From a virus: 64,000 nt of DNA. The translations under genes and the position numbers were made by a program. The DNA is taken from IMG/VR virus record IMGVR_UViG_3300020048_005080. One strand, written 5' to 3'. The notes under the pieces are model-generated. The model was not told where the DNA came from. It worked only from the letters and a program-made list of their open reading frames with translations, and made no database searches. Positions 13,899 to 59,738 of this stretch are shown here, one piece after another (the stretch's first letter is position 1; the number at the start of each line of letters is the position of its first letter).

Positions 13899-13939
13899 AA
13901 TCATTTTTTATTACAATTAGTAATTTCTAGATTTGCAAT
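13898..13939 (+). promoter_or_regulatory. promoter cassette (AAATCATTTTTTAT ... TTTCTAGATTTGC)
   Basis: AAATCATTTTTTATTACAATTAGTAATTTCTAGATTTGCAAT sits immediately 5' of the ATG at 13940. The -7 element is TAGATTTG. Confidence 0.55.
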
Positions 13940-14347
13940 ATGGAAAAAATAGCAAAACAGGTTATTGTGATCCGAAAGGATCTTAACATGAGAAAAGGAA
14001 AGATGGTAGCACAAGGTGCTCACGCATCTATGGCAGCAGTACTTGATCAAATGGTTATAAGAAATTGTCCTACAGGAATTCAGGAAAAAACTCTCTCACT
14101 AGAAAGTGGAACACCGATGGAATCTTGGATTAACGGTCTATTCACTAAAGTTTGTGTTTCTGTAGATTCTGAATCGGAATTAATGGAGATATATGAAAAG
14201 GCTAAAGGAGCAGGACTTATTGCATCTATAATCACTGATGCTGGCCTTACTGAATTTGCTGGAGTTCCAACAAAAACATGTATTGCAATTGGACCAAATT
14301 GGTCAGAAGAAGTTAACGAAATAACAGGACATTTAAAACTATTATAA
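13940..14347 (+). CDS. peptidyl-tRNA hydrolase, PTH2 family
   Basis: KQVIVIRKDLNMRKGKMVAQGAHAS and the C-terminus GLIASIITDAGLTEFAGVPTKTCIAIGP...TGHLKLL closely parallel archaeal/eukaryotic PTH2. Confidence 0.8.
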   Translation: MEKIAKQVIVIRKDLNMRKGKMVAQGAHASMAAVLDQMVIRNCPTGIQEKTLSLESGTPMESWINGLFTKVCVSVDSESELMEIYEKAKGAGLIASIITDAGLTEFAGVPTKTCIAIGPNWSEEVNEITGHLKLL

Positions 14348-15534
14348 TGTTACAAGAATTTTTAGATCTTATAGAAAGCAAGTCTCCAGGAGCACAGCCT
14401 CTTCTTATTGTTAAGAGAGGATCGCAGGCTTATGGTACTGCCATTCCCACATCAGATATTGATTATGCTGGAGTTTATATCCAACATATTGATAATATAT
14501 TGGGCTATGGCTACAAAGAGCAGATCAATGATGATAAGAATGACACTGTTTTTTATGAGATTAAAAGATTCTTAGATCTTGTATCTACAAATAACCCGAC
14601 TATTTTAGAGCTCTTAAACACACCAGAAGACTGCATTCTATATAAACACCCATTGATAGGTGAGATACTTCAGCACAGAGACAAATTCATCACTAAAAAG
14701 TGTTCTAATTCATTTGCTGGGTATGCTATTCAACAGATTAAGAAGGCAAAAGGACAGGACAAGAAACAAAACTGGGAGAAAGACAAAGTAACACGTAAAG
14801 ACGTTCTAGACTTTTGCTATGTTATAAAAGGAGAAAAATCTATGCCTTGGAAAGTTTGGAGCGAAGCCCGTTACGAAGAGAAATTTGTTGGTGTTGTAAA
14901 TTTACCTAATGCAAGGGATGTTTATGCTGTTTATTATGATACTGATTCTCACCTTTGCTTTTCTGAATCAATTCCGGAAGGTTCTAGAAATGTATATAAA
15001 AATAATCGAAAAGAATTAGGACTTGTTATGGGTCTAGGCTATAAAGGTCTAGTTAAGTCGGGTGAAGGTGCTAACGTTGCTGAATCCAACCAATTGAGAC
15101 TTTCAAGTATACCCAAAGGAGAAACCCCTATATGTAATATCATATACAATAAAGATGGTTACACTGCACATTGTAAAGATTATAGAGAATACCAAGAATG
15201 GTTAGATAATCGAAATGAACAGAGATGGACTGATGTTAAGACCCACGATCAGAAGATTGATGGTAAAAATATGATGCACTGTCGTAGACTCCTAGAAATG
15301 GCTAAAGAAATTGCTGAAGGTAAAGGCATTCTTGTAAGAAGAGAAAATGCTCAGGAGCTATTAGCAATTAGAAGAGGAGAGGTTGATCTACAAAGTCTAA
15401 TTGATAGAGCTGAAAATGACATCGTAGAAATTGATAGATTATTTAAAGAATCAGATCTTCCAGAATCGGTTGATCTTGGCTTTATTAATGATTTACTTGT
15501 TTCAGTAAGAAAAGAATTTTACGGATTAGCATAA
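14347..15534 (+). CDS. Pol-beta superfamily nucleotidyltransferase (GS-x9-DxD)
   Basis: RGSQAYGTAIPTSDIDYAGVY is the minimal nucleotidyltransferase signature. I cannot assign the subfamily, which could be RNA-repair associated, OAS-like or CD-NTase-like. Confidence 0.55.
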   Translation: MLQEFLDLIESKSPGAQPLLIVKRGSQAYGTAIPTSDIDYAGVYIQHIDNILGYGYKEQINDDKNDTVFYEIKRFLDLVSTNNPTILELLNTPEDCILYKHPLIGEILQHRDKFITKKCSNSFAGYAIQQIKKAKGQDKKQNWEKDKVTRKDVLDFCYVIKGEKSMPWKVWSEARYEEKFVGVVNLPNARDVYAVYYDTDSHLCFSESIPEGSRNVYKNNRKELGLVMGLGYKGLVKSGEGANVAESNQLRLSSIPKGETPICNIIYNKDGYTAHCKDYREYQEWLDNRNEQRWTDVKTHDQKIDGKNMMHCRRLLEMAKEIAEGKGILVRRENAQELLAIRRGEVDLQSLIDRAENDIVEIDRLFKESDLPESVDLGFINDLLVSVRKEFYGLA

Positions 15535-18815: not shown

Positions 18816-19130
18816 ATGAGTAAAAAAGTTTATCTTATCAAAGGTGCATTAGTCGATACGGAAGGAAAAAAAGAATGGATAGAATCAATAACAGCTTCTA
18901 AAGAAAGAGCAAATAAAATAAAAGCTCAATTGAATCGTTCATTAGAGGATGAGATTATCGTATCAAAAGAAATATTTGATAAGTACACTAAAGAGGGTTC
19001 AGAAGAATTAGAATGGGGTAAAATGGAATTTCACACTGATAATATGACAGATGACGAATTCGAAAAGTTCTGTATTTATAGATACGGAACTAAGATGCCA
19101 TTTAAAATAGAAGTATCAGATCTTGTCTAG
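18816..19130 (+). CDS. hypothetical protein
   Basis: 104-aa ORF. Confidence 0.45.
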   Translation: MSKKVYLIKGALVDTEGKKEWIESITASKERANKIKAQLNRSLEDEIIVSKEIFDKYTKEGSEELEWGKMEFHTDNMTDDEFEKFCIYRYGTKMPFKIEVSDLV

Positions 19131-20002
19131 ATACTTCCTTTTAAATTTCTTCTACTAACAATAGCTTTTATTCTCCTTTCAGCTTTATTAGATACACCTC
19201 TAGCCCATTCAGCGGTTCTTTCAAACGATTCCCCAATTTGTCTAAAAGATTGGGGTTCTTTATTTTCATCTAATCCGTATTTAAGTATAGTGATTTGTCT
19301 TTCCATTGGTTTGAGCTCGGATAATATACTCATTATAGATTTTTTTAAATCCTCATTTATTATATTACTGTCTGTGCTTGTTTCAGATTCTATCCAATTG
19401 ATAGGACTAAAAGAATCATCATCACTAGCATTTGTGCTACTTTCTAAAGGAATCGATCTTGGTGTATTTTTAATAGTTTCTATAGCTGATGCTGATAATT
19501 GAATATCCGTGTTCTCTTCTATTATTAATAACATTTCATCAATCGAAGGTTCTCTTCCGTGATAAGAAATAAAGCTTTCTTCCAGAGTTTGGTATTGTCT
19601 TAATTGTTGTGTGATATTAGTAGGGATTCTAACAGATCTTGAATTATTGTTCAGATACAGAAATATATTTTTTCTGATATGCCATACAGCATAACTGATA
19701 AATTTAAAACCTGTAGACGGATCGAAAGTTTCTATAGCTTCTACTAGACCTTTATTACCTTCAGATATTAGATCCTCTAAAGGATTTTGTTGTGAAGCAT
19801 AAGCTTTAGCAACAGATACAACAAATCTTAGATTTGATTTTAATATAAGCTCTTTAGCTTTAAGATCTCCATTTTTTGATTTAACTGCTAATTCAGCTTC
19901 TTTCTCAGGACTTAATATTTCATACTTACTTATTTCAGTGAAATATCTAGATATATTATCGTTAGTATTTGTAATTCTATTGATAATCTTAAATTCCCTC
20001 AT
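19127..20002 (-). CDS. RNA polymerase sigma-70 family factor (divergent)
   Basis: Region 2 is LRFVVSVAKAYASQQNPLEDLISEGNKGLVEAIETFDPSTGFKFISYAVWHIRKNI. Region 4 is the helix-turn-helix SFRQIGESFERTAEWARGVSNKAERRIK. Confidence 0.75.
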   Translation of the reverse strand: MREFKIINRITNTNDNISRYFTEISKYEILSPEKEAELAVKSKNGDLKAKELILKSNLRFVVSVAKAYASQQNPLEDLISEGNKGLVEAIETFDPSTGFKFISYAVWHIRKNIFLYLNNNSRSVRIPTNITQQLRQYQTLEESFISYHGREPSIDEMLLIIEENTDIQLSASAIETIKNTPRSIPLESSTNASDDDSFSPINWIESETSTDSNIINEDLKKSIMSILSELKPMERQITILKYGLDENKEPQSFRQIGESFERTAEWARGVSNKAERRIKAIVSRRNLKGSI

Positions 20003-20277: not shown

Positions 20278-20339
20278 ATATATTAAATCATTTTTTTTAT
20301 CAATAAGAAATTTCTAATATTGCAAGGTAATTAAAAAAT
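20278..20339 (+). promoter_or_regulatory. promoter cassette
   Basis: AAATCATTTTTTTTATCAATAAGAAATTTCTAATATTGCAAGG. The segment TCAATAAGAAATTTCTA is identical to the 10775 promoter. Confidence 0.55.
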
Positions 20340-20657: not shown

Positions 20658-22184
20658 ATGATAAATCCAGCTCTGCTAACAGACGGGTATAAAACTGGGC
20701 ATCACCAGCAATATCCCAAGGGAACGACATTAGTCTATTCCAATTTTACACCAAGAAGCAACAAGTACGCACCTAAGGGATGTGATATGGTAGTTTCTTT
20801 CGGACAACAATTAATCATGAAGCAAATTCACGAGAGTTTTAGAAAAGATTTCTTTGATCAACCAAAAGAAGCAGTATGTAAAGAGATTAGAGAGGAGCTC
20901 TCTTTATACCTAGGTGTAGATTATGACACAAGTCATTTCGAAGCTCTTCATGATCTTGGACATCTTCCTATTAAAGTTAAAGCATTACCAGAAGGCACAT
21001 TGGTTCCTATTAAAGTTCCAGTTTTAACTATCTACAATACAAACCCAGATTTTTACTGGATAACAAATTATTTGGAAACCCTAGTTTCTAATCTTCTTTG
21101 GAAACCAATAACCTCAGCAACTATTGCATTCCAATACAAAAGAGTACTTACAGAATGGGCTCTTAAAACAAATCAAGAAGCTAAAGAATTTGTTTACTGG
21201 CAAGGACACGATTTCTCTATGAGAGGTTTAGATTCTATTGATGCTGTAGTTTCATCTGGACTTGGTCACTTAACATCATTCTACGGTACGGATTCTCTTC
21301 CAGCAATTTACGGAGCACGTAAATTCTACGGAGCAGAAGGATTTGTTGGAGGCTCAGTTCCTGCAACAGAACACTCAGTTATGTGTGCAGGTGGTAAAGA
21401 AGACGAGATTGATACGTTCAGAAGATTACTTGAAACATATCCTAAAGGAATTCTTTCTGTAGTATCTGATACATGGGATTTATGGAAAGTGTGTACAGAA
21501 CACGTAGTCACTTTGAAAGATGAAATTCTTGCTCGTGATGGTAAATTAGTTATACGTCCTGACTCAGGAGATCCGGTTGATATTCTTTGTGGGTGGGGTG
21601 GCTTTGATCCTGAAGGTGAAAGCGAAGAAGCTAAAAATGAGCCACAAAATAAAGGAGTAATTGAATTACTTTGGGACGTATTTGGCGGAACAGTCAATGC
21701 TCAAGGTTACAAAGTACTTGACCCACACATCGGAGCTATCTATGGGGATTCAATCACAATCGACAGAGCAAATGAAATCTGCGCAAGACTAGAAGCAAAA
21801 GGATTCGCATCAACAAATGTTGTATTAGGGGTTGGTTCTTTCACTTATCAATATAACACTCGTGACACATTTGGTTTTGCAATGAAAGCAACGTATGTCG
21901 AAGTAAATAAACCAAAATTCGAAGGCGATTTCAATCCAGAAGGACGTGAGATCTTTAAAGATCCTATCACAGATGATGGAACAAAAAAATCTGCAACGGG
22001 ATTATTAAGTGTTCACAGTCATGATGGCGAATTGGTTTTAATTGACAAATGTACATGGGAAGGTGAAGAGGTTAGTTTATTACAAACAATTTACCAAGAC
22101 GGTATTTTTCACAATCCAGTTACTCTAAATGAAATCAGAGAGAAATTAGATAAAGCTATACATTTACAATTCGAATTAGCTTAA
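20658..22184 (+). CDS. nadV: nicotinamide phosphoribosyltransferase (NAMPT family)
   Basis: N-terminus MINPALLTDGYKTGHHQQYPKGT. The 508-aa length and colinear conservation are typical of NadV/NAMPT. Confidence 0.85.
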   Translation: MINPALLTDGYKTGHHQQYPKGTTLVYSNFTPRSNKYAPKGCDMVVSFGQQLIMKQIHESFRKDFFDQPKEAVCKEIREELSLYLGVDYDTSHFEALHDLGHLPIKVKALPEGTLVPIKVPVLTIYNTNPDFYWITNYLETLVSNLLWKPITSATIAFQYKRVLTEWALKTNQEAKEFVYWQGHDFSMRGLDSIDAVVSSGLGHLTSFYGTDSLPAIYGARKFYGAEGFVGGSVPATEHSVMCAGGKEDEIDTFRRLLETYPKGILSVVSDTWDLWKVCTEHVVTLKDEILARDGKLVIRPDSGDPVDILCGWGGFDPEGESEEAKNEPQNKGVIELLWDVFGGTVNAQGYKVLDPHIGAIYGDSITIDRANEICARLEAKGFASTNVVLGVGSFTYQYNTRDTFGFAMKATYVEVNKPKFEGDFNPEGREIFKDPITDDGTKKSATGLLSVHSHDGELVLIDKCTWEGEEVSLLQTIYQDGIFHNPVTLNEIREKLDKAIHLQFELA

Positions 22185-24164: not shown

Positions 24165-24653
24165 ATGAAAGTACAAATTTTAAAACCTACTGACGGTGAC
24201 CCTGTGCTTAACAAGGTCACCGTTTTTCTTGCTGGTTCTATAGAAATGGGAGCAGCAGAGGATTGGCAGACTATTGTTTCTAACAAGATGGAAGAATTGG
24301 AAATGCCTATTACTATATTTAATCCAAGAAGAGATTCATGGGATTCATCTTGGGAACAGAGAGAATCTAATCCACAATTTAGCCAACAGGTTAACTGGGA
24401 GATGGATAGACTTAATGAATGTGATATTATATTTATGTACTTCTCCCCTGGTACAAAATCCCCTATCTCTCTATTAGAATTAGGTCTTCATGCAGATTCA
24501 AGAAAAATGATCGTGTGTTGTCCTGATGAATTTTGGAGAAAGGGCAACGTTGAAATTGTTTGCTCTAGACACAATATACCTTTACATGACAATCTAGAAC
24601 ACGCTATGATGTGTTTGTCAGCTGTAACATCATCAGAATTAATTAATAAATAA
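24165..24653 (+). CDS. 2'-deoxynucleoside 5'-phosphate N-hydrolase / nucleoside deoxyribosyltransferase-like (DNPH1/Rcl fold)
   Basis: VFLAGSIEMGAAEDWQ, FNPRRDSWDS, ECDIIF, and SLLELG. It is a paralog of 1919..2275. Confidence 0.6.
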   Translation: MKVQILKPTDGDPVLNKVTVFLAGSIEMGAAEDWQTIVSNKMEELEMPITIFNPRRDSWDSSWEQRESNPQFSQQVNWEMDRLNECDIIFMYFSPGTKSPISLLELGLHADSRKMIVCCPDEFWRKGNVEIVCSRHNIPLHDNLEHAMMCLSAVTSSELINK

Positions 24654-27184: not shown

Positions 27185-27572
27185 TTCTTATCACCGATCC
27201 CTGTCCGTGCATAACTTGAATAATGTAAGATCCCATATAATAAGCTTCTCCCGTGAACATATTCAGATATTTTTCATCTGTACATTCTTTGCAATATTTC
27301 TTTGCGTATCCTAAAGCTATCCATAGAAGAGATTCTCTAGGTTCATATCCTAAAGAATATTCTCTTCTTACGTATTCATCAGAATCGTATTTTTCTATTA
27401 ACTTCTCAAGATAAGCGTCAATATCGGACTCTGCTAATTTTTTGAATTTTTCGATCCATCTATCTTTACGCTCTTCCTCTCTTTTTATTTTGTTTCCAAA
27501 TTCCTCAATGGATTTCTTACCCTCTTCGGTATCTAAAAATTCTCTCAATTTTTCTACCATGCTTTTACTCAT
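27168..27572 (-). CDS. hypothetical protein
   Basis: 134-aa ORF. Confidence 0.5.
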   Translation of the reverse strand: MSKSMVEKLREFLDTEEGKKSIEEFGNKIKREEERKDRWIEKFKKLAESDIDAYLEKLIEKYDSDEYVRREYSLGYEPRESLLWIALGYAKKYCKECTDEKYLNMFTGEAYYMGSYIIQVMHGQGSVIRIDKML

Positions 27573-28303
27573 AACTCAAATGTTGGTTTTAACCATATGC
27601 CCCTGCTGAAAACTAATTTAGTAAATCCAGGTAATGTATTTTCAACTTCTCTAAAAAGATCTAAAGATGCAACAGTGTCGTGCTTCATCATCTTAAAAAC
27701 TTCCTCTCTAATTCTTTCTGCAGAAACAACCTTCTCAAGCTTTTCTAAAATTTCAGGTTGTGTCATTGCAGAAATAATATCGTAATTTATTAGAAATCCC
27801 TTAGTAACCGCAAATCTTAAGGCTCTTAAAAACCTTAAAGGATCATCCATCATAGTCTGCTCAGCTGGAAGTGGTGTTCTTAATATTTTTCTTTCTAAAT
27901 CTTCTTTACCTCCAAATAGATCTATGATGTTTCCATCATCATCCTCTGCCATAGCATTTAGAGTAAAGTCTCTCCTGATAAGATCATCTTCCAAAGTTCC
28001 AAGAACCAAAATTGGCTGTCTTGTCCCCTGTACATATCCAATCTCTTTTCTTGCCATTACAAAATCTGCAACTAGTCCTTCGTTTTTATGTCCTTTTGGA
28101 AACTTAGCTCTGATAGTAAAACAATCAGGAGTAGACAAGAATATACTAAATGCCTCTTGGGCTAGCCAATTTGTCATTGATTGAAATCCTTCTTCTACTG
28201 TCTGATCTAGATTATCTAGAATAAATGTGAAATCGATATCTTTAGATTCTACGCCTAATAGCTTATCCCTTACACATCCTCCAACTTTAAATATCTGTGG
28301 CAT
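27569..28303 (-). CDS. tRNA nucleotidyltransferase (CCA-adding / poly(A) polymerase head domain, class II), minimal
   Basis: VGGCVRDKLLGVESKDIDFTF matches GGxVRD...DxD, and RRDFTLNAMA is the class II NTase motif. Confidence 0.8.
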   Translation of the reverse strand: MPQIFKVGGCVRDKLLGVESKDIDFTFILDNLDQTVEEGFQSMTNWLAQEAFSIFLSTPDCFTIRAKFPKGHKNEGLVADFVMARKEIGYVQGTRQPILVLGTLEDDLIRRDFTLNAMAEDDDGNIIDLFGGKEDLERKILRTPLPAEQTMMDDPLRFLRALRFAVTKGFLINYDIISAMTQPEILEKLEKVVSAERIREEVFKMMKHDTVASLDLFREVENTLPGFTKLVFSRGIWLKPTFEL

Positions 28304-29538: not shown

Positions 29539-30327
29539 TTAAATAAGCCCTTTAATCTCTGCTAGAATCTCTCTAAATCGAGCTAATTCTTTAATCCCTT
29601 TGTGATAAGCTAGACCTTCCTCTAATAGATCATACGTTTTAACCACCGTACTTCCTTCGTTATCTTTGTTTGCTAGAACTAACACAGTGTCAGCAATAGC
29701 ACAAGATGTTTCAATATCATGTGATACGACAACCAAAGTGTTCATTTCATCTAAGTTTGATACTTTAATAAGAAGTTCAACAACTTTATCTTTCATGATT
29801 GTGTCCAATCCAGAGAATGGTTCGTCCAAAAGAATAAATTTGTTACCTGCAAGAACTTGTTGTAAAATAGACACCCTCTGCTTTTGTCCTCCTGATAAAT
29901 CACAAGGGTATTTACTAAGCTGATCTGTTAATTCAAAATGCTCAGCATATTGTTTGATTGTCTCTATTTTCTCTTTACCCTTCATACTAGTTAAAGCTAA
30001 TGAAAGATTCGTCATAATAGTTCGATGATTAAATAGGTGATAATCCTGTGGTACCACACCCATTTCTCCAGTTTTAACCGGGTGTTGATCTGCTCCAACT
30101 TTAATATCTCCCGAATTGGCTTTGTTGTATCCAGATAGAAGTTTAAATAAAGATGTTTTACCACATCCGCTTCTTCCACATATTGCTACGATTTGCCCTT
30201 GTGTCATACCAGGTCTTGTAACATTATGGATCTGCATATTGATATCTTTTAGTATTGGCTTATCGTCATAAGTGAGACTCACATTATTGACAGATAAGAT
30301 CAATTCTTCTTTTTTGTAGTCAATCAT
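29539..30327 (-). CDS. ABC transporter ATP-binding protein (NitT/TauT-like)
   Basis: Walker A is GRSGCGKTS, the ABC signature is LSGGQKQRV, and Walker B is ILLDEPFSGLD. Confidence 0.85.
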   Translation of the reverse strand: MIDYKKEELILSVNNVSLTYDDKPILKDINMQIHNVTRPGMTQGQIVAICGRSGCGKTSLFKLLSGYNKANSGDIKVGADQHPVKTGEMGVVPQDYHLFNHRTIMTNLSLALTSMKGKEKIETIKQYAEHFELTDQLSKYPCDLSGGQKQRVSILQQVLAGNKFILLDEPFSGLDTIMKDKVVELLIKVSNLDEMNTLVVVSHDIETSCAIADTVLVLANKDNEGSTVVKTYDLLEEGLAYHKGIKELARFREILAEIKGLI

Positions 30328-31136
30328 TTTCTAAGAATTTTATTGATCCATAATTTATTATAACGAGTGGTATCTGTATAAGGGAAGATCCAAACTTTCA
30401 TTAAATCGAATAAGTAATCGAATACGATACCTATAATAAGAATCACAATTAATACACCAAACACATCGTCCATTTTTAAGTACTTATTAGATTTGATCAT
30501 CATAGTACCTAAACCTCCTTCAGACATACAAATCCCTTCCACTGAAGTTATCATCATCCAAGCAATTGCAAAGTTCTGTCTAATAACTTCCAGAACTAAA
30601 TGAAGCTTACCTTTAATAACCACTTCATATAATGTCTTCCATGTGCTGAATTTAAGGGAGTAACAAAGTTCGTATTCTTTCTTAGGTATATCTCCAATGT
30701 AAGCTAAAAGAGATGTAACAAAGTATGGTATAATACCAAATAAAAGCAGTGAGATCTTAATATCGCTTCCATCCTTGATGAGTATAGTAAAGACGAATAA
30801 AAGTCCAGTATACGTCAAGAAACGAAGCTTAGAAACGAATATTGCTATTCCTTTAAAAGCTGGAATTAATGCAAGATAAACTATAGCTAAAGAAATAGTT
30901 ATAGATATCACCATTCCTTTTAGTATTAGTCCTAGTGTTGCGAAGAAGTTATCTAAGAATCCAGGTCCTGTAATAATCTTCCATGATGAATTTAAAATTC
31001 CTGAAGGTTTAGGAAGTAACTCATTTCCGTTTACCTGTGCTATAAATAGAAATATAGCTATTTGAATTATCCCGATGATAAGCATAGTTCTTACACTTAC
31101 GCTCTCTAGGAATCTTGGTGAGAATATTTTCTTCAT
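30324..31136 (-). CDS. ABC transporter permease
   Basis: Six predicted TM helices. It is overlap-coupled to the ATPase. Confidence 0.7.
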   Translation of the reverse strand: MKKIFSPRFLESVSVRTMLIIGIIQIAIFLFIAQVNGNELLPKPSGILNSSWKIITGPGFLDNFFATLGLILKGMVISITISLAIVYLALIPAFKGIAIFVSKLRFLTYTGLLFVFTILIKDGSDIKISLLLFGIIPYFVTSLLAYIGDIPKKEYELCYSLKFSTWKTLYEVVIKGKLHLVLEVIRQNFAIAWMMITSVEGICMSEGGLGTMMIKSNKYLKMDDVFGVLIVILIIGIVFDYLFDLMKVWIFPYTDTTRYNKLWINKILRK

Positions 31137-34752: not shown

Positions 34753-34823
34753 TTTTTTACTGAAATTTACTGAAAAAATTTCAATACCCCTTATATTATT
34801 AAAAAACACGCACGCGTATGACC

Positions 34824-34861
34824 ACAAAAAAAGCCAGAAAAACTGGCTTTTAATTTTTTTT
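34824..34861 (-). terminator. rho-independent terminator
   Basis: AAGCCAGAAAAACTGGCTT hairpin flanked by an A-run and TTAATTTTTTTT. Confidence 0.65.
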
Positions 34862-34870
34862 GTATGTAAA

Positions 34871-36034: not shown

Positions 36035-36685
36035 TTATATATCTGTTGATTCAATAAGTGTATAAGAGAATTTATTTCCGTGAATTTTTGCTGCTTTTTT
36101 ACAAATCGCTAGAAAAGCATCAAAATCTTTTACTCTTTTAAATACCTGACATCCTTCGCTCCAGTTTTCTACCCATGTAGAATCCGTACCTGCTTTATGA
36201 ATATTAATACCGAACATACCTGTGTCAGTTACTTTCTCTTCAAAAAGTAAATCTTTGTTAGCATCTCGCCAAACTGTAACATTACCGTTTCTTTGGCAAA
36301 GAGCTTCATATTTACCTTGATGTTTATCGATAGACCATACTCCTCTGTATTGTCCAGGAACTAATCTTGCAACACCTTTATTGTTATGAAATTCCATAAC
36401 TCCTTTTTTACCTGGGTCACATGTAGCATTCCAAGCATAATATTGCCAATTTTTACTTTCATCTTTAAATGAAATAGTTAGCGTGTCATCAAAAACGTTA
36501 GTAACTTTATCTGCTATTGACGGAGCGTTATTTCTAACGCCAACAATATTAACATCATAAGTTTTGTTTGATGTGTCTTCAAACCAAGCATAGCCTTTTG
36601 CTTTAACTGCTTTTTCTATCTGTTCTCTTGTATAACTCATTTTTTTGTTTTTATTTTGTAATTTTTTTATATTAATCAAAACCAA
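36035..36685 (-). CDS. L,D-transpeptidase (YkuD)-like cell-wall enzyme
   Basis: GINIHKAGTDSTWVENWSEGCQVFKR resembles the YkuD catalytic motif IHG...SHGC(I/V)R. I consider this tentative. Confidence 0.4.
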   Translation of the reverse strand: MVLINIKKLQNKNKKMSYTREQIEKAVKAKGYAWFEDTSNKTYDVNIVGVRNNAPSIADKVTNVFDDTLTISFKDESKNWQYYAWNATCDPGKKGVMEFHNNKGVARLVPGQYRGVWSIDKHQGKYEALCQRNGNVTVWRDANKDLLFEEKVTDTGMFGINIHKAGTDSTWVENWSEGCQVFKRVKDFDAFLAICKKAAKIHGNKFSYTLIESTDI

Positions 36686-37827
36686 TTTTTAGGATTCCAT
36701 TTTGATTTTTTAGCATCTTCTGCAGCTTTATTTAAAGCATCTTGTGTTTCTCTAGCTACTCTTTCTGTTTCTCTTTGTGTTGCTTCAGCTGCTTCTCTAG
36801 CTACTCTTTCTGTTTCTCTTTGTGCTGCTTCAGCTGCTTCTTGTGTTTCTTTAGCTACTCTTTCTGTTTCTTTTTGAGCAGCAGCTGCTTGTTCTGCTAA
36901 GACTCTATCAGCTTCATCAGCTAAACGTTTAGCTTCTGCTGCTTGTTCATCAGCAAATTTTTGAGCTGCTTCAGCTTGTTCTTTAGCAATTCTTTCCGCT
37001 TCACCGTCAGCAATTGCATTACCTAAGTCAATAGCAGGATTCAAATCTAGATTAACATTAACATCGGCGTCAAGTCCAACTAGTAAAGCAGCTTCTCCGC
37101 TAATCCCTACGCTTACTTCTCCATCGTTAAAAGTTCCATGTGCTTCACCTTCAGCGCCAACTTGAACGCCAATACTAGCTCCAGCTGAACCACTTGCCTC
37201 TGCACCTCCAATTGGAGTATTGACACCAACAGTTCCACCAGCTTCAACACCAACACCGGCACCGGCCATAGCTCCACCGCCAACATCCACACCATGTTCG
37301 CCTACAGTAGCGTGTCCTTCTACTCCAGCGTGTGCTTCCGCGTAAGCACCTGCGTGTCCTTCAGCATCTGCTTCAACCTTAACCTCACCTAGTGGAGTAT
37401 CAAGTCCTGCTTCAGCATGAGCTTCTGCACTTGCTTCAACTTCAACTCTAGCGCTAACTTCTGCACCTGCTTCTATTTTAGCATCCGATCCGTCCCATCC
37501 CGCTTCTGCGTGTGCTTCTGCACTTGCCTCTGCACTTGCGTGTGCTTCCGCCCGAGCATCAACCTCTGCACCAATACTTACTCCCCCGCCTAAATCTTGG
37601 CTTGCGTGAGCTTCTGCATTTGCATCTACATTTACTTCAGCACTTACCTCTGCTTCCGCACTTGCATGAGCCATAGTACCATCGATACCTGCTTCTGCAC
37701 TTACATGAGCTTCTGCTGAAGCATCATAACTTGCATCTGAACTTGCTCCTAGATTTTCATTTCCTGTTTGTGTTGATACATTCCCATTTAAAGATGCGCT
37801 TGCTCCTATTTCTACTTCTTCGTTCAT
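36676..37827 (-). CDS. Ala/Glu/His/Gly-rich repeat protein with C-terminal coiled-coil repeats
   Basis: AEAHASAEA-type repeats, and a C-terminal RETERVA(R/K)E repeat matching about 42-bp DNA tandem repeats at 36720-36900. There is a local GC-rich island. Confidence 0.55.
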   Translation of the reverse strand: MNEEVEIGASASLNGNVSTQTGNENLGASSDASYDASAEAHVSAEAGIDGTMAHASAEAEVSAEVNVDANAEAHASQDLGGGVSIGAEVDARAEAHASAEASAEAHAEAGWDGSDAKIEAGAEVSARVEVEASAEAHAEAGLDTPLGEVKVEADAEGHAGAYAEAHAGVEGHATVGEHGVDVGGGAMAGAGVGVEAGGTVGVNTPIGGAEASGSAGASIGVQVGAEGEAHGTFNDGEVSVGISGEAALLVGLDADVNVNLDLNPAIDLGNAIADGEAERIAKEQAEAAQKFADEQAAEAKRLADEADRVLAEQAAAAQKETERVAKETQEAAEAAQRETERVAREAAEATQRETERVARETQDALNKAAEDAKKSKWNPKNWF

Positions 37828-39028: not shown

Positions 39029-39283
39029 TTATTTGACCATTATCACCTTAAATGCTAATGTATCACCTATTTTATATGGTTCCGAAGATATGCACTCATT
39101 TCCACACGAAGTTTTAAGTTTCCATTTTCTTCTACCCATATTCATTTCATCGTGAATAGATTTAGGGGTATTGTCGATTTCGACACAATAATTAACCACA
39201 CATTTTCTTTGTTCTATTTTAGTGTTATTATTACACGAAAATAATAATGCAGGGAATACAAAAAATAAGATCTTTTTCATCAT
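39029..39283 (-). CDS. lipoprotein (possible spanin-like lysis accessory)
   Basis: MMKKILFFVFPALLFSCNNN is a lipobox-type signal with Cys. The gene lies immediately downstream of the endolysin. Confidence 0.4.
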   Translation of the reverse strand: MMKKILFFVFPALLFSCNNNTKIEQRKCVVNYCVEIDNTPKSIHDEMNMGRRKWKLKTSCGNECISSEPYKIGDTLAFKVIMVK

Positions 39284-39468
39284 CTATTAAATACTGAGTT
39301 AATATAATGCTCTATTCTTTCGTCATGTAATTCTTCGCACATTTTAAATTGCATTTCTGTGTTCCCTTTAGGGTAAAGTCTTCTCATGGTTTCAAATAGA
39401 ACTTTTCTTCTATCGGTTAAATTAATGTCTTTTTCTTTAGAAGCTACGATGATTTTAGTTTTTTCCAT
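39280..39468 (-). CDS. hypothetical protein
   Basis: 62-aa ORF. Confidence 0.35.
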   Translation of the reverse strand: MEKTKIIVASKEKDINLTDRRKVLFETMRRLYPKGNTEMQFKMCEELHDERIEHYINSVFNR

Positions 39469-39624
39469 ATAATCTTTGATAAGTATTATATGTTAAATAA
39501 CGAGTAAAATTTCATTATAAGACTATCAGTTAATATTAATATGGCGAAATATTATGGATTGTAAGATAGATATAATAATAAAATCACACACGGCTTAGGA
39601 CCGTGATGTTACGCAAGTATCATT

Positions 39625-39668
39625 GAGAGTCAGGATAAATCGCAACCTTCCTGGCTCTCTTTTTTTAA
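39625..39668 (+). terminator. strong hairpin plus T8 (plus-strand intrinsic terminator geometry)
   Basis: GAGAGTCAGGA-loop-TCCTGGCTCTC (11 bp, one G-U) followed by TTTTTTTT. Confidence 0.45.
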
Positions 39669-39679
39669 TTCAAATAAAT

Positions 39680-40255
39680 CTAATTGTTTTTATTCTCGCT
39701 GGCGTATTTAACACCCATGATAGTACCAACTATTGAGAAAGCATTAGTCAGAAGAATACCAAACATATTACTCCATGTAGATCCTATGATCTGTGTGTCC
39801 TTTCCTGTCATCATTGCAATTCCGTACATAATAGTCGTAATAACACCAACACTTATAATAACTAATAAAGCAACTTTAACAATTGTTCCTATAAGTTCTG
39901 TCTGTGATTTTTTTTGCATTACGTCTAAATCGTTTAATGCAATATCTTTTGCTTCTAGAGCTTCATTTTTAGAATCCTCTGCTTCATGTAATGCAATCTT
40001 AAGCTCCTCGTTTATTCTTGTATTCTCCTCTTCAGAAGCTTGGAGCTCACGATTTCGTTCTTGTACCTGTTTAGTTATTTCAAGTCTTTTCCTCCTACCG
40101 TCTTTATCCTTCTCTATTGATACGGAGAGATAATTTTTAAAATCATTATCTCCATCCTCTGCCTCAAGGATCTTTAGTATATTACCTTCTAAGCTTACCC
40201 TTTTTGTTTTTTGTATTTCAAGTAAGCAATCCCTGACTTCTTTACTTACTTTCAT
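39680..40255 (-). CDS. coiled-coil protein with C-terminal TM helices
   Basis: 191-aa ORF. Confidence 0.5.
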   Translation of the reverse strand: MKVSKEVRDCLLEIQKTKRVSLEGNILKILEAEDGDNDFKNYLSVSIEKDKDGRRKRLEITKQVQERNRELQASEEENTRINEELKIALHEAEDSKNEALEAKDIALNDLDVMQKKSQTELIGTIVKVALLVIISVGVITTIMYGIAMMTGKDTQIIGSTWSNMFGILLTNAFSIVGTIMGVKYASENKNN

Positions 40256-40686
40256 TACTTATAAATCTTAAATGGATTTGTTCTATTTTTGTATCCTGGA
40301 AAATCATTTTTGAAATCCTCTAATCTTGGTTCAATATCATCTGATTTTATAATCCAAAATTGAGCACCTGCTTTAACTGCTTTAGCTTGTTCTTCTGGTT
40401 CATTAGAGGAAGATATTATTCCAATAACAACATTATTACCATACTCAAAATTAATCTTACGGATTAATTCTATACCATCATAGGAAGATCCAATTATGTT
40501 TAGGTCTACAAATACACATTCAGGTTTTCCGTCTGGATTTTTTTGCCATTCTGCAAAAAGTCTAGCAGCTTCATCTGAGCTATCAAGACTTTCTAAAGAA
40601 AGTGAAATATCAAGAAGACTGCAAGCATCTTCAAATACAAGATGAAATAGACTTTCGTCATCTACTAATAAAATTGAATCAATCAT
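40255..40686 (-). CDS. response regulator receiver (REC-only) protein
   Basis: ILLVDDE and FVDLNI are the phospho-acceptor context. The protein is CheY-like in size. Confidence 0.7.
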   Translation of the reverse strand: MIDSILLVDDESLFHLVFEDACSLLDISLSLESLDSSDEAARLFAEWQKNPDGKPECVFVDLNIIGSSYDGIELIRKINFEYGNNVVIGIISSSNEPEEQAKAVKAGAQFWIIKSDDIEPRLEDFKNDFPGYKNRTNPFKIYK

Positions 40687-42814
40687 TTTTTAAGTTTATT
40701 TTTATTTGACTTCCTTCAACTGGAAGTTTATCACAAGAAACACTAAACCCATGTTCTTCTAATATTGCTATACATATATTTAATCCCAGACCAGTGCCAG
40801 ACTCTTTCTGTCCTTCCTTACGAGTATATGGTTGCGAAAGTAATTTGAACTCTTCTGAGCTTAATCCTCTTCCGTTATCCTCTACATATAATGTATCATC
40901 TATTCTATAGATCTTTACAATCTTATTATTGCTATCATTATATTTTAGGCCATTTCTGATTAAATTATCCAACGCTGTACAGAATAGTGCTTCGTTAACA
41001 CTTAATTCTCCTAAATCTGATAGATCAACCTGAGGTCTATATGCAGTTGCTGATAGATAATCCTCAAGAATATTTTTCAAATTACATTCTTCTCTATTAA
41101 GTACTACGTCTTTCTTTACAAGATTTGTAAACTCGTAAACTCCTTTATAAACTTTTTGTGTGTGACGAAGTCCTTCTTTAATCATTTTAATAGGGGCTTC
41201 AATCTTAAGTTCCTTTATTTGCTCCTCAGATAATCTTCTATCTAAAGAGCTTAGTCCTCTAGGCATGTATGTGTTAATGCCACTGTGCATATCATGTCTA
41301 AGTATTTTAGCAGCATGCTCAAGATACGTATTTTTCTTTTCTAGTTCTTTCTGTTGATTATAACTTTCAGTAATATCGGTAGCAATTTTCATCACTCGAT
41401 ATGGTTTTTCATCAGGTCCTATGATAGGATTGTATGTTGCTTGGAGATAAATTAATGCCCCATTTTTTCTTCTTCTTGTAACTTCGCCTCTGAAGAATTT
41501 TCCGTCGCTTAGTGATTTCCAAAAATCTTGATATTCTTTGGTATTCTTTTCTGAATTTTCTATAAATATGCTATGGTGTTTTCCTATAATTTCTTCTTGT
41601 GAATATCCTAATATGCTCAAAAATGAATCATTTGCAAATTTTATATTACCATCTAAATCAAATTCAATAACAGCATTTGATCTATTAATAGCATTCATTC
41701 TATTGGATATTTCAACCTCTTTTCTTTTTAACTCAGTTACATCTTGGCGTATAGAAGAGAATCCACAAAGTTTATTATTTTCGTCAAATCTAGCTTTAAT
41801 AAAAGTATCTACATAATATAGACTTCCGTCTTTAGCTCTATTTGTACAAACAGCATTCCATATTTTTTTTTCGGCTACAACTGTTTTGTACATATCACTC
41901 CAAAACTCTTTAGGATGTGTACCTGAGTTTACTATATTATGATCCCTTCCTATAACTTCATCTAAAGAATATCCAGAAACATCAGTGAATCTTTGATTTA
42001 CATAAGTTATTTTTCCTTTCTCGTCAGCAACTGAGATAATAGAAGAAGCATCAAGAAATTTTTCATTCTCAATTATTTCGTGAGATAATTTATTAGATTC
42101 TTTAACTGAATACCCAAACGAGTATAATGAAGAAAGCATCTGTGCAAAATCTACCTCGTCTTTATCCCATATTCTTGGTGAAAGACTTTCAATACATATA
42201 ACTCCTATTACTTCCCCTTTATACCAGATAGGAACATCGAGCATTGATTTTACACCTAATGGTTTAAGATATCCTTCTAAAAAACAAGAAGTTGCTGGAT
42301 GTGTTTCTGCATTATCTGCAATGATTATTGGATTATCTTTTATTGCTTCAAAATATGGAAAAAAGTCTTTCTCAAATAGCTCTATATCTTTATAAAAATT
42401 ATCCTCCGATCTAATATAAAGATTCTGACAGATAATAGACGTACGATCGTTATTATAAAGCCAAAAAGAACATCTATCAGATTCTATAGTATCTGAAACT
42501 TCTTTAGAAAGAATAGCAGATCCTGCTTCTATATTACCAGAAAAAAATACCTCATTATGAGATTGTCTGATTAAAGAGTCCGATAATTTCTTATTGTATT
42601 TTAATTTCTTTTTTTCCTGTCTGCTTTTATTTAAAAATGTTCTTCCTATAAAATATGAAGGGACACAGAAAGAAATAAAACATAGATACTCGATTAAATT
42701 GTAAAAATCTGAGTCTTTAACTATTCCGAATGTGATAGATGTTTTTATCACAAAGAAAAATATCATAATAAGAATAGCGGACGCCGTAGAAAATAATAAT
42801 CCAAATTTTTTCAC
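40679..42814 (-). CDS. sensor histidine kinase with TM, GAF-like and two PAS domains
   Basis: PAS region ITYVNQRFTDVSGYSLDEVIGRDH. H box RHDMHSGI. N box LIRNGLKYN. G boxes DNGRGL and GTGLGLNI. Confidence 0.85.
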   Translation of the reverse strand: MKKFGLLFSTASAILIMIFFFVIKTSITFGIVKDSDFYNLIEYLCFISFCVPSYFIGRTFLNKSRQEKKKLKYNKKLSDSLIRQSHNEVFFSGNIEAGSAILSKEVSDTIESDRCSFWLYNNDRTSIICQNLYIRSEDNFYKDIELFEKDFFPYFEAIKDNPIIIADNAETHPATSCFLEGYLKPLGVKSMLDVPIWYKGEVIGVICIESLSPRIWDKDEVDFAQMLSSLYSFGYSVKESNKLSHEIIENEKFLDASSIISVADEKGKITYVNQRFTDVSGYSLDEVIGRDHNIVNSGTHPKEFWSDMYKTVVAEKKIWNAVCTNRAKDGSLYYVDTFIKARFDENNKLCGFSSIRQDVTELKRKEVEISNRMNAINRSNAVIEFDLDGNIKFANDSFLSILGYSQEEIIGKHHSIFIENSEKNTKEYQDFWKSLSDGKFFRGEVTRRRKNGALIYLQATYNPIIGPDEKPYRVMKIATDITESYNQQKELEKKNTYLEHAAKILRHDMHSGINTYMPRGLSSLDRRLSEEQIKELKIEAPIKMIKEGLRHTQKVYKGVYEFTNLVKKDVVLNREECNLKNILEDYLSATAYRPQVDLSDLGELSVNEALFCTALDNLIRNGLKYNDSNNKIVKIYRIDDTLYVEDNGRGLSSEEFKLLSQPYTRKEGQKESGTGLGLNICIAILEEHGFSVSCDKLPVEGSQIKINLKND

Positions 42815-42870
42815 TGAGAATATTTTCTTTTATATATCCCCCCGTGCCAAAAAAATCGATATGGAATTAT

Positions 42871-43194: not shown

Positions 43195-43346
43195 AGCTTA
43201 GGCTTAATAAAATTAATTCCAATTAAGAATATCATAACTAAATTAGTAGTTAGGTGAAGACCCCTTCCGTTGTATTTATAGCAAAGAATATTTCCAATGG
43301 CTAAGGCAATTAGTAAAATAATTGGAAAGATATATTTTTTTATCAT
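43191..43346 (-). CDS. small membrane protein (51 aa, below the track threshold)
   Basis: MIKKYIFPIILLIALAIG... with ATGA overlaps on both sides. Confidence 0.25.
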   Translation of the reverse strand: MIKKYIFPIILLIALAIGNILCYKYNGRGLHLTTNLVMIFLIGINFIKPKL

Positions 43347-44164
43347 ACTTCTAAATCTAAAATTAGTACATCATCATAATCATCCCATGGACAATCAACT
43401 AAATAATGTGTGACCTCTCCACAGATAATATCTTTTATCATTTTTTGTGGAGTGTGTCCAACTATCTGATTAACCCCTTCTAAAGGAAAATCATTTAGTA
43501 TTGTGGGCCTAACCCAGAAAGGCCCTGCCCATAAGTTATAGCCTCCGCTGTGTGCATCAACATTAAATATGTTATCGACTCTGAGCTCAAATAGATCATT
43601 TATAAATTTTTCCAGATCATTAGGATCAAAATCTTTAGTTATTTCATGTTTTTTATATCTTGGGTTATTAATATCTCTACAAACATCTTTTAGCCATCCG
43701 TTAGTAACTCCTGCATGTGTCCATAAATACTTAACACCTGTATTATCTTTTTCTAAATGAGCCGCTTTAAAACATTCTTTATTATCAGTAAATAATTGAT
43801 AAAGATCTGGCTTCATTTCTGCTCTATATCCGCTACAAACTTCGTTGGGAACAAAATATTGAATATCGTGATTTCCAAGTAAAAGTACAACCTTGTCAGG
43901 TAATGCTTTTTTGAAGAAAAGTATTTTTTTAAGATTGTCTAGGATTGTAACATTGCTAATATCAAAGCTGTCTACATAATCTCCGACGAATATGATTTGA
44001 TCATATTCAGTATAAGGCATTTCTTTCCAAAATTCTTCAGCATCTGCTGGAACTCCATTTTCAACCATTGTCATCCAGTGATTGAATTCATAAGGGCTTC
44101 CGTGTGTATGAAACATCCACTTATCCCGCCCATGAACATCCCCTAATGTTAAAATCTTCTTCAT
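43343..44164 (-). CDS. Ser/Thr phosphatase-like metallophosphoesterase
   Basis: LGDVHG, GDYVD and LLGNHD. Confidence 0.75.
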   Translation of the reverse strand: MKKILTLGDVHGRDKWMFHTHGSPYEFNHWMTMVENGVPADAEEFWKEMPYTEYDQIIFVGDYVDSFDISNVTILDNLKKILFFKKALPDKVVLLLGNHDIQYFVPNEVCSGYRAEMKPDLYQLFTDNKECFKAAHLEKDNTGVKYLWTHAGVTNGWLKDVCRDINNPRYKKHEITKDFDPNDLEKFINDLFELRVDNIFNVDAHSGGYNLWAGPFWVRPTILNDFPLEGVNQIVGHTPQKMIKDIICGEVTHYLVDCPWDDYDDVLILDLEV

Positions 44165-54522: not shown

Positions 54523-54572
54523 TTCTTTAAAAATTATTTACTGATTATATATCCCCCTTATTACAAAAAACC

Positions 54573-54612
54573 ACAAAAAAAGCCTGTTTTTTAAAACAGG
54601 CTAATATTTTTA
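54573..54612 (-). terminator. rho-independent terminator
   Basis: AGCCTGTTTT-TTAA-AACAGGCT perfect hairpin between an A-run and a T-run. Confidence 0.65.
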
Positions 54613-54622
54613 TGAGAAATTA

Positions 54623-55054: not shown

Positions 55055-55211
55055 TTTATATTATTTTTTATAGATTATATATCCTTAGGAAAAACAAAAA
55101 TATAATAAAGAACTAAATGAAATAATAAAAACAGCAAATATTAGATATTCTTGGATCTCACTTAATGGTTTACATTTAAGATCACAATTAGGATCCCCGC
55201 AATAAACACAT

Positions 55212-58871: not shown

Positions 58872-59738
58872 TTACCCCAAGTATGATCTTAGTAATCTGC
58901 TTCTTGTAGAAACTCTAAGTTTCTTAATTCCCTTCTCCTTTATCTGTCTTGCACGTTCTCTAGATATCTCTAATTTCTGTCCAATTTCGTCTAATGATCT
59001 TGGACAAGACTGATCGATACCATAGAACATTTTAATCACATTTTTAGAGCGTATGTCTAGTGTATTAAGACTTCTTTCTATTTCTGTTCTTAAAGATTCG
59101 TGAATTAATAAATTGTCTGCAGATGGAGAATCGGGATTAATTAAAACCTCAATCATTGCTGAAGCTTCAGAATCCCCGCCTAACGGTGCATCAAAGGATG
59201 TGTGTTTTAAAGATGTCTTGACAGTTTCTGAAATTTTATATTCAGGAATATCCAAAGCTTCTGATATCTCTTCGTGAGTTGGTATTCTTTCTAGATCCTG
59301 CTCTAATTTTCCTATAGTTCTATTAATTTTACTAAGAACCCCAACCTGATTTAAAGGTATACGAATAACCCTAGATTTTTCAGAAAGAGCTTCTAATATA
59401 CTCTGTCTAATCCACCAAACTGCATACGATATAAATTTGAATCCTCTTGTTTCGTCAAATTTTCTAGCTGCTTTTATTAGACCTAGATTACCCTCGTTTA
59501 TAAGATCTATTAGTGGTAATCCTTGATTCTGGTATTGCTTAGCAACAGATACTACGAATCTTAGATTTGCTTTAGTTAATTTATCTAAAGCAGCTTGATC
59601 TCCTTCTCTAATTCTTCTTGCTAATCTAGTTTCTTCCTCTATTGTAATCAGAGCCTCCTTAGAAATATCACTAAGATACTTTTCCAATGATTTATCTGCA
59701 CGGTTAGTAATAGATTGGGTAATCTTAAGTTGTCTCAT
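58872..59738 (-). CDS. rpoD: RNA polymerase sigma factor, near copy of the Bacteroidota primary sigma A
   Basis: MRQLKITQSITNR, LTKANLRFVVSVAKQYQNQGLPLIDLINEGNLGLIKAARKFDETRGFKFISYAVWWIRQSI, and the terminal LRSYLG. The short 288-aa form is characteristic of Bacteroidota. Confidence 0.9.
   Translation of the reverse strand: MRQLKITQSITNRADKSLEKYLSDISKEALITIEEETRLARRIREGDQAALDKLTKANLRFVVSVAKQYQNQGLPLIDLINEGNLGLIKAARKFDETRGFKFISYAVWWIRQSILEALSEKSRVIRIPLNQVGVLSKINRTIGKLEQDLERIPTHEEISEALDIPEYKISETVKTSLKHTSFDAPLGGDSEASAMIEVLINPDSPSADNLLIHESLRTEIERSLNTLDIRSKNVIKMFYGIDQSCPRSLDEIGQKLEISRERARQIKEKGIKKLRVSTRSRLLRSYLG

Follow-up and report, generated by a model that had tools for sequence, protein, structure and literature searches.

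A conserved three-hairpin element carrying the anticodon arm of tRNA-Leu(UAG) at the site of a decayed gene in a phage-like genome

The DNA considered here is a 64,000-nucleotide (nt) stretch from a virus (IMG/VR record IMGVR_UViG_3300020048_005080), referred to below as the window. An earlier note, made from the letters alone, had described the gap at 39,469–39,679 as its longest non-coding stretch, and this is indeed the case: the gap measures 211 nt, and the runner-up in a tiling of open reading frames (ORFs) of at least 50 amino acids (aa) measures 172 nt. Its left border is the ATG of a 62-aa ORF, and its right border is the stop codon of a 191-aa ORF. Three parts can be recognized between these borders, namely a short region containing the likely promoter of the 62-aa gene, the two ends of a plus-strand gene that has decayed, and a conserved element made of three adjacent hairpins, called A, M and B (Table 1). 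The related contigs and loci compared with the window are designated by L-numbers (L001, L089, etc.).

Hairpin B is the plus-strand stem already spotted in the earlier note, and its 11 pairs are real. GAGAGTCAGGA (39625–39635) pairs with TCCTGGCTCTC (39649–39659) through six G–C, four A–U and one G–U pair, the latter being the wobble between T39630 and G39654. The T run that follows has seven residues (39660–39666) and not eight as first reported. Structure prediction, one of the checks proposed at the time, gives a plus-strand fold beyond chance, with the three hairpins lying side by side. The 81-nt plus-strand RNA 39587–39667 is predicted at −28.5 kcal/mol (z = −5.4), with 0 of 200 shuffled sequences as good, and the three-hairpin fold accounts for 51% of the plus-strand ensemble. 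The minus strand of the same 81 nt reaches −23.3 kcal/mol (z = −3.25).

Exact-pattern scans for the element core matched 7 viral and 25 metagenome contigs. With a covariance model built from five copies (R1), the element was found in about 40 related contigs, with scores of 55–110 bits against a noise of at most 20 bits; the E-values of this short-calibrated model are rough. R1 recognizes exactly one copy in the window (39584–39668, plus strand, 105 bits), hence one in 64 kb, and one per related locus. A search of the viral contigs for the exact big hairpin returned no match, because the stem of hairpin B varies, and relaxed patterns freeing the stems of A or M recovered only the same seven viral contigs. 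Relatives of the 191-aa protein are encoded on 252 viral contigs. Among 80 fetched loci of these relatives, two alone, L001 and L003, have DNA in common with the gap, through a match of 92–93% identity almost confined to 39574–39667 (L003 also matches over 38 nt at 39484–39521), and R1 detected no copy in the 78 fetched loci without this shared DNA. As a safeguard against circularity, loci were also retrieved through the neighbouring 62-aa protein instead of the element sequence. The element was then present beside the gene in 7 of 9 viral loci and in 7 of 8 protein clusters, the proteins of these clusters being 35–45% identical to that of the window. The 62-aa gene adjoins the element in most copies, either directly or across a membrane-protein gene described below, the exceptions being L101, L187 and L243.

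The final alignment comprises 26 distinct copies of the element. Covariance, the other check proposed in the earlier note, supports helix B: compensatory changes occur at 10 of its 11 pairs and 99.3% of the cells are paired, compared with 20–43% in a control where the partner columns were shifted. The core of the hairpin B loop, UCGCAACC, is conserved, with weak variants in L187 (UCGCACC) and L243 (UCGCUACC), and the loop length, 13 nt in the window, ranges from 11 to 16 nt in the relatives. Hairpin M is nearly invariant, and its loop, GCAA, GAAA or GAGA, is always of the GNRA type. Its few variants are a U–A to A–U flip combined with a repaired mismatch (L243), the replacement of the U·U by a one-base bulge (L255) and a gain of U–A and G–U (L105). 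Hairpin A is identical in 26 of 26 distinct copies. A and M thus stay unchanged, or nearly so, next to a 62-aa gene whose homologues share 35–94% identity at the protein level and, for most of them, 61–70% at the DNA level, and this also applies to the copies retrieved through the protein. The wobble pairs indicate the strand: 11 G–U/U–G cells are compatible with a plus-strand reading, against one A·C cell (L088) in favour of the minus strand, and the RNA is therefore assigned to the plus strand of the window. Two diverged copies deserve mention, one at 2535–2617 (minus strand) of L187, a phage-like contig binned as Chitinophagaceae, the other at 7188–7275 (plus strand) of L243, after homologues of an endolysin gene and of a 103-aa gene on the same strand. 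Since they lie in quite different gene contexts, the family is probably wider than the exact-pattern scans show.

The relation of the element to tRNA is most visible in hairpin A, which agrees at 17 of 17 positions with the anticodon arm of true tRNA-Leu(UAG) genes and has the 5-bp stem, the 7-nt loop, the U33 and the purine 37 of such an arm. A search with this 17-mer, CACGGCTTAGGACCGTG, among genomes taken one per species matched at least 120 contigs. Among the matches listed, 118 of 120 are tRNA-like and 116 are called tRNA-Leu(tag); the remaining two are the diverged whole element of L187 and an apparently chance match (L231). For 22 of the 23 matches tested, ARAGORN calls a tRNA-Leu(tag) gene around the match and puts the anticodon in the middle of the loop. 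The resemblance extends beyond this arm. Real tRNA-Leu genes continue with U-GCC-GCAA/GAAA-GGC-GU, the long variable arm of class II tRNAs, and the element has at this position A-UGUUAC-GCAA-GUAUCA-U, which is hairpin M, with the same layout and the same kind of tetraloop. A further likeness, noticed post hoc and only suggestive, concerns hairpin B: its loop-proximal 7 bp read GCCAGGA/TCCTGGC in copies such as L096, L001 and L088, as does the acceptor stem of two of the matched tRNAs. The window has GUCAGGA here, one base off, and other types of hairpin B differ from other tRNA-Leu acceptor stems by one base.

The element is nevertheless not a canonical tRNA. It has neither an acceptor 5′ strand nor a D arm nor a canonical T arm, so that a full cloverleaf cannot be drawn, and the sequence upstream of it in the relatives is coding or promoter-like. 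ARAGORN reports no tRNA or tmRNA in the window. The 22-mer GGACCGTGATGTTACGCAAGTA, which runs from the 3′ part of A across most of M, has no match in 185,579 species genomes (one genome each); the element therefore does not copy any known cellular gene, nor is it present in known prophages. The exact anticodon arm is seen in Candidate Phyla Radiation (CPR) bacteria, Elusimicrobia, Acidobacteria, Chloroflexi and archaea. Judged from its sequence, the element is derived from tRNA-Leu(UAG), an example of how a tRNA gene can be turned into something different. The sequence and RNA-family databases searched gave no counterpart: neither the region nor the element alone gave a blastn match against 50,697 GenBank phage records, and Rfam 15 assigned no family at the gathering threshold in the window. 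At E ≤ 10 the best sub-threshold Rfam hit over the element was ctRNA_pGA1 (13.2 bits versus 45 needed), with no tRNA match. The element represents a family of structured RNAs so far uncatalogued, whose covariation is strong, whose descent from a tRNA is clear and whose genomic niche is defined. A separate observation concerns L018 (571–644; also L019), a related phage contig where an array of nine tRNAs contains a UAG tRNA of only 74 nt that, in contrast to ordinary class II tRNA-Leu, lacks a long variable arm and whose anticodon arm differs from hairpin A.

The niche itself becomes clearer when the relatives are considered. In L001, L003, L089, L097, L100, L106 and L252–254, an intact plus-strand gene of 159–161 aa is present between the 62-aa homologue and the conserved block (the L001 copy lies at 5658–6143 on the minus strand of that contig). 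Its product looks by sequence like a multi-pass membrane protein and has no Pfam match. In every intact copy, the last five codons and the stop codon of this gene are located inside the RNA element, the TAG stop coinciding with the ‘anticodon’ triplet in the loop of hairpin A. In the window, the middle of the gene (about 400 nt) is deleted, codon 6 is a stop codon, and only both ends are kept. The 5′ remnant matches the start of the intact 160–161-aa gene (ATGTTCAATAATCAG.. in L003, ATGTTCTCTCACAGAAAAGATTTC.. in L089), and the 3′ remnant aligns with its last ~55 nt in L089 and L001. The same deletion is carried by L102, the nearest relative of the window (94% DNA identity in the 62-aa gene); the gene is intact in L089 (95%). 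The statement that no plus-strand ORF exists in the gap thus holds for the window, because the plus-strand gene present there in the relatives has decayed. The RNA element, which overlies the 3′ end of this gene, survives untouched. Many contigs have no membrane-protein gene at all, the element being then only 50–75 nt away from the ATG of the 62-aa homologue. A relic terminator of the deleted gene was considered as the whole story and was dropped, because the element, with its covariation and conserved loops, also occurs without the gene in L081, L083 and others. Taken jointly with the tRNA-mimic mechanism discussed below, the gap can with some preference be regarded as a decayed gene slot still holding an intact RNA module under selection. 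A practical consequence for annotation is that an ‘orphan terminator’ in a gap can be the sole intact part of a decayed gene slot.

Hairpin B has the geometry of an intrinsic terminator, with a G+C-rich 11-bp stem placed directly before the T7 run. The consensus terminator scan, which accepts only loops of 3–8 nt, did not list it because of its 13-nt loop; the scan listed instead the hairpin 39589–39605 as read on the minus strand. The other terminators of the window have the same stem-plus-T-run form with short loops. The T run is present in most copies and is weaker where the convergent gene overlaps. The position is also that of a unit end, since the element follows a plus-strand ORF in all the contigs with an intact membrane-protein gene and in L101 and L243. 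In every context, hairpin B closes a plus-strand unit and faces either a new promoter or a convergent gene, which may be the 191-aa gene, a 106-aa gene or a gene for a protein with a type IX secretion system (T9SS) tail. In L244, L251, L255 and L257 (1–1274), the gene convergent on the element encodes a protein of about 640 aa with a PF18962 tail. The upstream side is variable, with a half-cassette AAA(A/G)ATTTC-(T/C/A)AT(C/T)TTAC, the membrane-protein gene or other small ORFs; the element lies about 950 nt downstream of a tRNA array in L101 and after the homologue of the window's 103-aa gene in L243. The small plus-strand RNA ending at about 39668 that the earlier note had envisaged is supported as a candidate product by the hairpin and T run suited to a 3′ end, the conservation of the element and the G–U pairs possible only on the plus strand. 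With regard to the usual marks of a trans-acting small RNA that base-pairs with targets through a conserved seed, the terminator geometry is present, the promoter-like half-cassette is found only in some relatives, and complementarity to the window, T-run matches and the hairpin's own arms apart, does not exceed 9–10 nt.

We infer from these sequence features that the element is transcribed, that it terminates transcription and that it acts as a mimic. Plus-strand transcription coming from the left would stop at hairpin B. Any RNA with its 3′ end there, whether the mRNA of the membrane protein or a small RNA on its own, would then display two arms of tRNA-Leu(UAG), the anticodon arm and the variable arm, immediately before a protective terminator hairpin. 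Such a display would be a tRNA mimic, bound or cut by a protein that normally recognizes tRNA-Leu, the most attractive case being a decoy for a host tRNA-targeting nuclease. An RNA-level tRNA mimic with a built-in terminator, read by a tRNA-Leu-recognizing protein, is the reading that we favour, as somewhat more probable than not. The genes for RNA repair and tRNA metabolism in the window and the tRNA arrays of its relatives fit it without proving it. The decoy version is a good deal more speculative: large uncultured phages, probably infecting Bacteroidota, would produce an ‘unfolded’ tRNA-Leu(UAG) that cannot be charged and that would act, alongside RNA ligase, RlaP, Pth2 and CCA-type enzymes, as a decoy or an inhibitor. 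Its target would be a host tRNA-Leu-directed (class II) nuclease or another tRNA-binding defence protein, to which the anticodon and variable arms would be offered, each as a free hairpin, ahead of a terminator hairpin resembling an acceptor stem.

Several points weigh against a tRNA mimic. Among the 80 titled matches listed, none of the tRNAs with the exact arm comes from Bacteroidota, which is the likely phylum of the host. Hairpin A has no support from covariation, because its sequence never varies, and several searches required parts of A or M, so that some of this invariance is a retrieval effect. No recognizable promoter cassette precedes the element in the window; if transcribed, it would be driven from the promoter of the decayed gene, which may itself be dead. 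In some relatives, the half-cassette abuts the element, and the spacing seen at the Pth2 gene would place the transcript start within hairpin A, in its 5′ arm or its loop, so that the anticodon-arm hairpin might be incomplete in these contigs. Lastly, the longest complementarity of the element to the window, leaving aside T-run matches and its own arms, is 9–10 nt.

Two alternatives place the function of the gap on the minus strand. In the earlier note, a minus-strand string, GATTTTATTATTATATCTATCTTAC, was taken for a degenerate variant of the promoter cassette, which would make the gap a regulatory leader of about 100 nt for the 62-aa gene, driven by a weak promoter. The string is there, 93 nt from the ATG, and its 3′ part TCTATCTTAC resembles the TTTCTATCTTTAC core of the window cassettes. 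This is however the only part that matches: the T run (ATCATTTTTTTAT) and the AAGAA, found in all seven full cassettes (aaTCATTTTTTTAT-N-AAGAAa-TTTC-TAnnTTTr-C), are both missing. The distance of 93 nt compares with about 35 nt or less for the cassettes with a visible ATG, and the string is antisense to conserved membrane-protein codons of the relatives. Moreover, a CATATAATA-type box occurs 10–20 nt before the ATG of the 62-aa gene in 12 of the 12 relatives checked (less exact in L083, L088 and L001), and relatives without the membrane-protein gene leave no more than the short element-to-ATG spacing given above. The corresponding box of the window, ACATATAATAC, is likely the promoter of the 62-aa gene, and with a box so close to the ATG a long leader is therefore not needed. 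The string is probably not a promoter, and the leader hypothesis is very improbable. The other alternative is a bidirectional or minus-strand stop, with hairpins that would end the histidine kinase/response regulator/191-aa unit before the 62-aa gene. Hairpin A on the minus strand is indeed followed by UGUGAUUUUAUUAUU and was listed as terminator-like, and an A7 run precedes hairpin B on this strand, corresponding to the T run on the other side. Read on the minus strand, hairpin B of the window nevertheless contains an A–C mismatch and continues with AAUGAUAC, where no U run is found. In the relatives, the U-rich stretch is about 6 nt away from the stem of hairpin A and within a coding region, and most of the 28 relatives with downstream sequence read go from the 191-aa gene straight into the next gene with no visible hairpin. 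The wobble count of 11 to 1 for the plus strand points the same way, and the stop for the minus-strand gene, offered in the earlier note as an alternative to a small RNA, looks quite unlikely.

The two other alternatives accept the element and deny it the role of an RNA mimic. Hairpin B might simply have ended the lost gene, with A and M as tRNA-Leu leftovers without a present role, kept uniform by frequent recombination at this junction, on the model of the mobile regulatory cassettes beside variable genes in T4-type phages. The element does lie at a mosaic junction, with the membrane-protein gene present, absent or decayed on its left and different genes on its right. The same type of hairpin B is found with and without this gene, which suggests exchange at or near the element, and the geometry of B is canonical for a terminator apart from the loop size. 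The limits of the invariant block are however sharp and the same in all copies, right beside a hairpin B changed at 10 of 11 pairs, and this is therefore not the pattern of patchy recombination. The B loop UCGCAACC and the GNRA loop of M are kept through changes of their stems, which is what a functional RNA would show. Each genome segment has a single copy and not many, and a conserved loop of 12–16 nt is unusual for a terminator, the loops of the other terminators in the window being short. A plain terminator accompanied by a fossil appears on the whole rather unlikely. A site acting as DNA has also to be weighed, since the palindromes CACGG-N7-CCGTG and GATGTTAC-N4-GTATCATC could form, in double-stranded DNA, the core of a site-specific recombination site derived from a tRNA-Leu gene and resembling a phage attachment site (attP), or an operator for the neighbouring small protein. 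A 5-bp inverted repeat around a 7-bp spacer, equal to an anticodon arm, is the classic core for integrases that target tRNA genes. Hairpin A has this form, and in most contigs the element has a single small gene as its neighbour and lies where variable genes meet. On the other side, the absence of the 22-mer from the 185,579 species genomes leaves neither an attB nor a prophage copy, and an actual attP, like a host gene, was dropped as a candidate on this ground. What the element shares with cellular genomes is the 17-mer arm only, and with tRNAs of other phyla. Integration would not rebuild a tRNA, because the sequence does not go on into a canonical T arm or the 3′ end of an acceptor. No integrase was recognized with Pfam and PHROGs among the ~47 ORFs scanned in the window, beyond which the genome extends, and its gene set, with a Gp23-type capsid protein, a Dda helicase and two sigma factors, corresponds to a large T4-like phage. 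The G–U pattern of hairpin B and the G–U of hairpin M in L105 point to RNA, and the 62-aa protein has no recognizable DNA-binding fold. A DNA-level site is accordingly improbable.

The favoured reading, a tRNA mimic fused to a terminator, can be compared with several known systems. With intrinsic terminators, the element shares the G+C-rich stem followed by seven U, at the end of a plus-strand unit and facing a convergent gene. Such terminators have neither a conserved UCGCAACC core in a loop of 12–16 nt nor two conserved hairpins upstream, and the sequence conservation of the element is far above what a terminator needs. With the class II tRNA-Leu(UAG), the common points are the 17/17 anticodon arm, the GNRA-loop hairpin placed directly after it like a variable arm and, in some copies, the loop-proximal 7 bp of hairpin B, equal to an acceptor stem. 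Unlike the tRNA, the element has no 5′ acceptor strand, D arm, canonical T arm, discriminator or CCA, and its variable-arm-like stem counts 6–7 bp versus 3–4 bp in the tRNAs compared.

Partial copies of tRNAs in other transcripts are known. tmRNA reproduces the acceptor, T and D part of a tRNA, and the operator of thrS mRNA reproduces the anticodon arm of tRNA-Thr in the 5′ leader of a cellular gene. The bacterial and phage Y RNA-like YrlA also copies the acceptor, T and D part (PMC4201824). In all these cases, as in the element, a non-tRNA transcript faithfully copies part of a tRNA, which suggests that it is read by tRNA-binding proteins. The element differs from YrlA and tmRNA in that it copies the anticodon and variable arms, and from the thrS operator in that it is located at a 3′ end, in a phage, and fused to a terminator. 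Phage counter-defence tRNAs offer another comparison: a tRNA of phage T5 counters PARIS, a complete tRNA answering a tRNA-cleaving defence (PMC11464382). Here, the common features are a phage RNA with a host-like anticodon arm and RNA-repair genes in the same genome. Those tRNAs are complete and chargeable and replace the cleaved species, whereas the element is unchargeable and could only be a decoy or a binding partner. The tRNA fragments of attP sites likewise give phages with a partial tRNA starting at the anticodon arm. The element departs from them by stopping before the T arm and acceptor end, by the absence of an integrase among the ORFs scanned and of any host or prophage copy in the genomes searched, and by a downstream hairpin that follows RNA pairing rules. 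The mobile regulatory cassettes of T4 type, which combine a terminator with an early promoter, resemble it in that the flanking gene content varies around them; they occur in many copies per genome and the element only once in 64 kb. In the literature consulted, no description was found of an anticodon-plus-variable-arm copy fused to a terminator. The known phage answers to tRNA cleavage are whole replacement tRNAs and repair enzymes, and a two-arm decoy, if true, would be different and cheaper. It would also indicate a so far unknown host factor reading tRNA-Leu(UAG). Even with a more modest function, the element represents an uncatalogued, tRNA-derived family of structured RNAs.

The window as a whole is phage-like, densely coded and of low G+C content (32%). 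Among its genes are those for an endolysin (PHROG 181), a Gp23-type capsid protein, a Dda-like helicase and two sigma factors (19127–20002 and 58872–59738), as well as for NAMPT and a histidine kinase with its response regulator. The Dda helicase shows no more than 32% identity to its best match in a cultured phage, Flavobacterium phages being among the top matches, and the window has no close cultured relative. A-rich stretches precede the ATGs, where no Shine-Dalgarno-like motif is seen, and proteins with the T9SS sorting tail PF18962 are encoded beside the element in relatives. These A-rich stretches and PF18962 neighbours suggest, without proof, a Bacteroidota host. The genes for RNA repair and tRNA metabolism are scattered over the window, in which ARAGORN finds no tRNA gene within 64 kb; the relatives carry tRNA arrays.

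Table 1. Positions of the features discussed, in window coordinates unless a contig is named.
Feature	Position	Strand	Remarks
Conserved element	39589–39666	+	~80 nt; three adjacent hairpins A, M and B
Hairpin A	39589–39605	+	CACGG-CUUAGGA-CCGUG; UAG anticodon triplet at 39596–39598
Hairpin M	39606–39623	+	AUGUUAC-GCAA-GUAUCAU; 7 positions with one U·U
Hairpin B	39625–39659	+	11-bp stem 39625–39635 with 39649–39659; 13-nt loop UAAAUCGCAACCU; stem of the earlier note
T7 run	39660–39666	+	intrinsic-terminator geometry
5′ gene remnant	39490–39530 (3′ limit approximate)	+	ATG TTA AAT AAC GAG TAA at 39490–39507; in-frame stop 39505–39507
3′ gene remnant	39541–39598 (5′ limit approximate)	+	ends at TAG 39596–39598
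‘Degenerate cassette’ GATTTTATTATTATATCTATCTTAC	39585→39561	−	antisense of 3′ gene remnant
Box ACATATAATAC	39493→39483	−	15 nt before ATG of 62-aa ORF; likely promoter element, implies short leader
62-aa ORF	39280–39468	−	left neighbour, transcribed away from the element
191-aa ORF	39680–40255	−	convergent right neighbour; C-terminal membrane segment
Full cassettes	13896–13936, 20283–20323, 59804–59764, 50344–50303, 34747–34709, 28356–28318, 10828–10789		
Second motif sites	54523–54622, 42815–42870, 34754–34870, 55055–55211; L101 9880–9900		
RNA ligase (PF09414 with PHA02142 OB fold)	6312–7334	−	with AAA ATPase, joint span 5312–7334
Pth2, peptidyl-tRNA hydrolase	13940–14347	+	directly before RlaP
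RlaP (PF10127)	14347–15534	+	
CCA/poly(A)-polymerase head domain	27569–28303	−	
Calcineurin-like phosphoesterase	43343–44164	−	

The 62-aa protein has no Pfam or PHROG match, and its AlphaFold2 (AF2) model, three helices with a predicted local distance difference test (pLDDT) score of 74, gave no significant fold match in the PDB and hence no hint of a partner. On the other side of the gap, a two-component pair (40255–42814, minus strand) is located directly upstream of the 191-aa gene; it consists of a 711-aa GAF-PAS-PAS histidine kinase and a 143-aa stand-alone receiver. The trio of histidine kinase, receiver and 191-aa gene is conserved in L001, L003, L249 and L252.

A perfect box of the cassette type, TAGATTTG, is found at 13928–13935, only 4 nt from the ATG of Pth2 (13940), and a leaderless or nearly leaderless mRNA is therefore implied for this gene. 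Another upstream motif, GGGGGATATATAA, made of a G run and ATATATAA, precedes several ATGs by about 20–35 nt, often just past a terminator, and may define a second, late-type class of promoters.

Other genes of the window are worth recording. A 383-aa protein (36676–37827, minus strand) is built mostly of degenerate repeats AEAHASAEA / EAxAxxE, and its gene, just downstream of the lysis genes, lies in a local G+C peak of 39.6% versus about 32%. Auxiliary metabolic genes are found at 29539–31136 (minus strand), 20658–22184 (plus strand), 8980–9900 (minus strand) and 24165–24653 (plus strand), and their types include an ABC-transporter ATPase with its permease, NAMPT with a phosphoribosyltransferase (NAD salvage) and a nucleoside 2-deoxyribosyltransferase-like protein.

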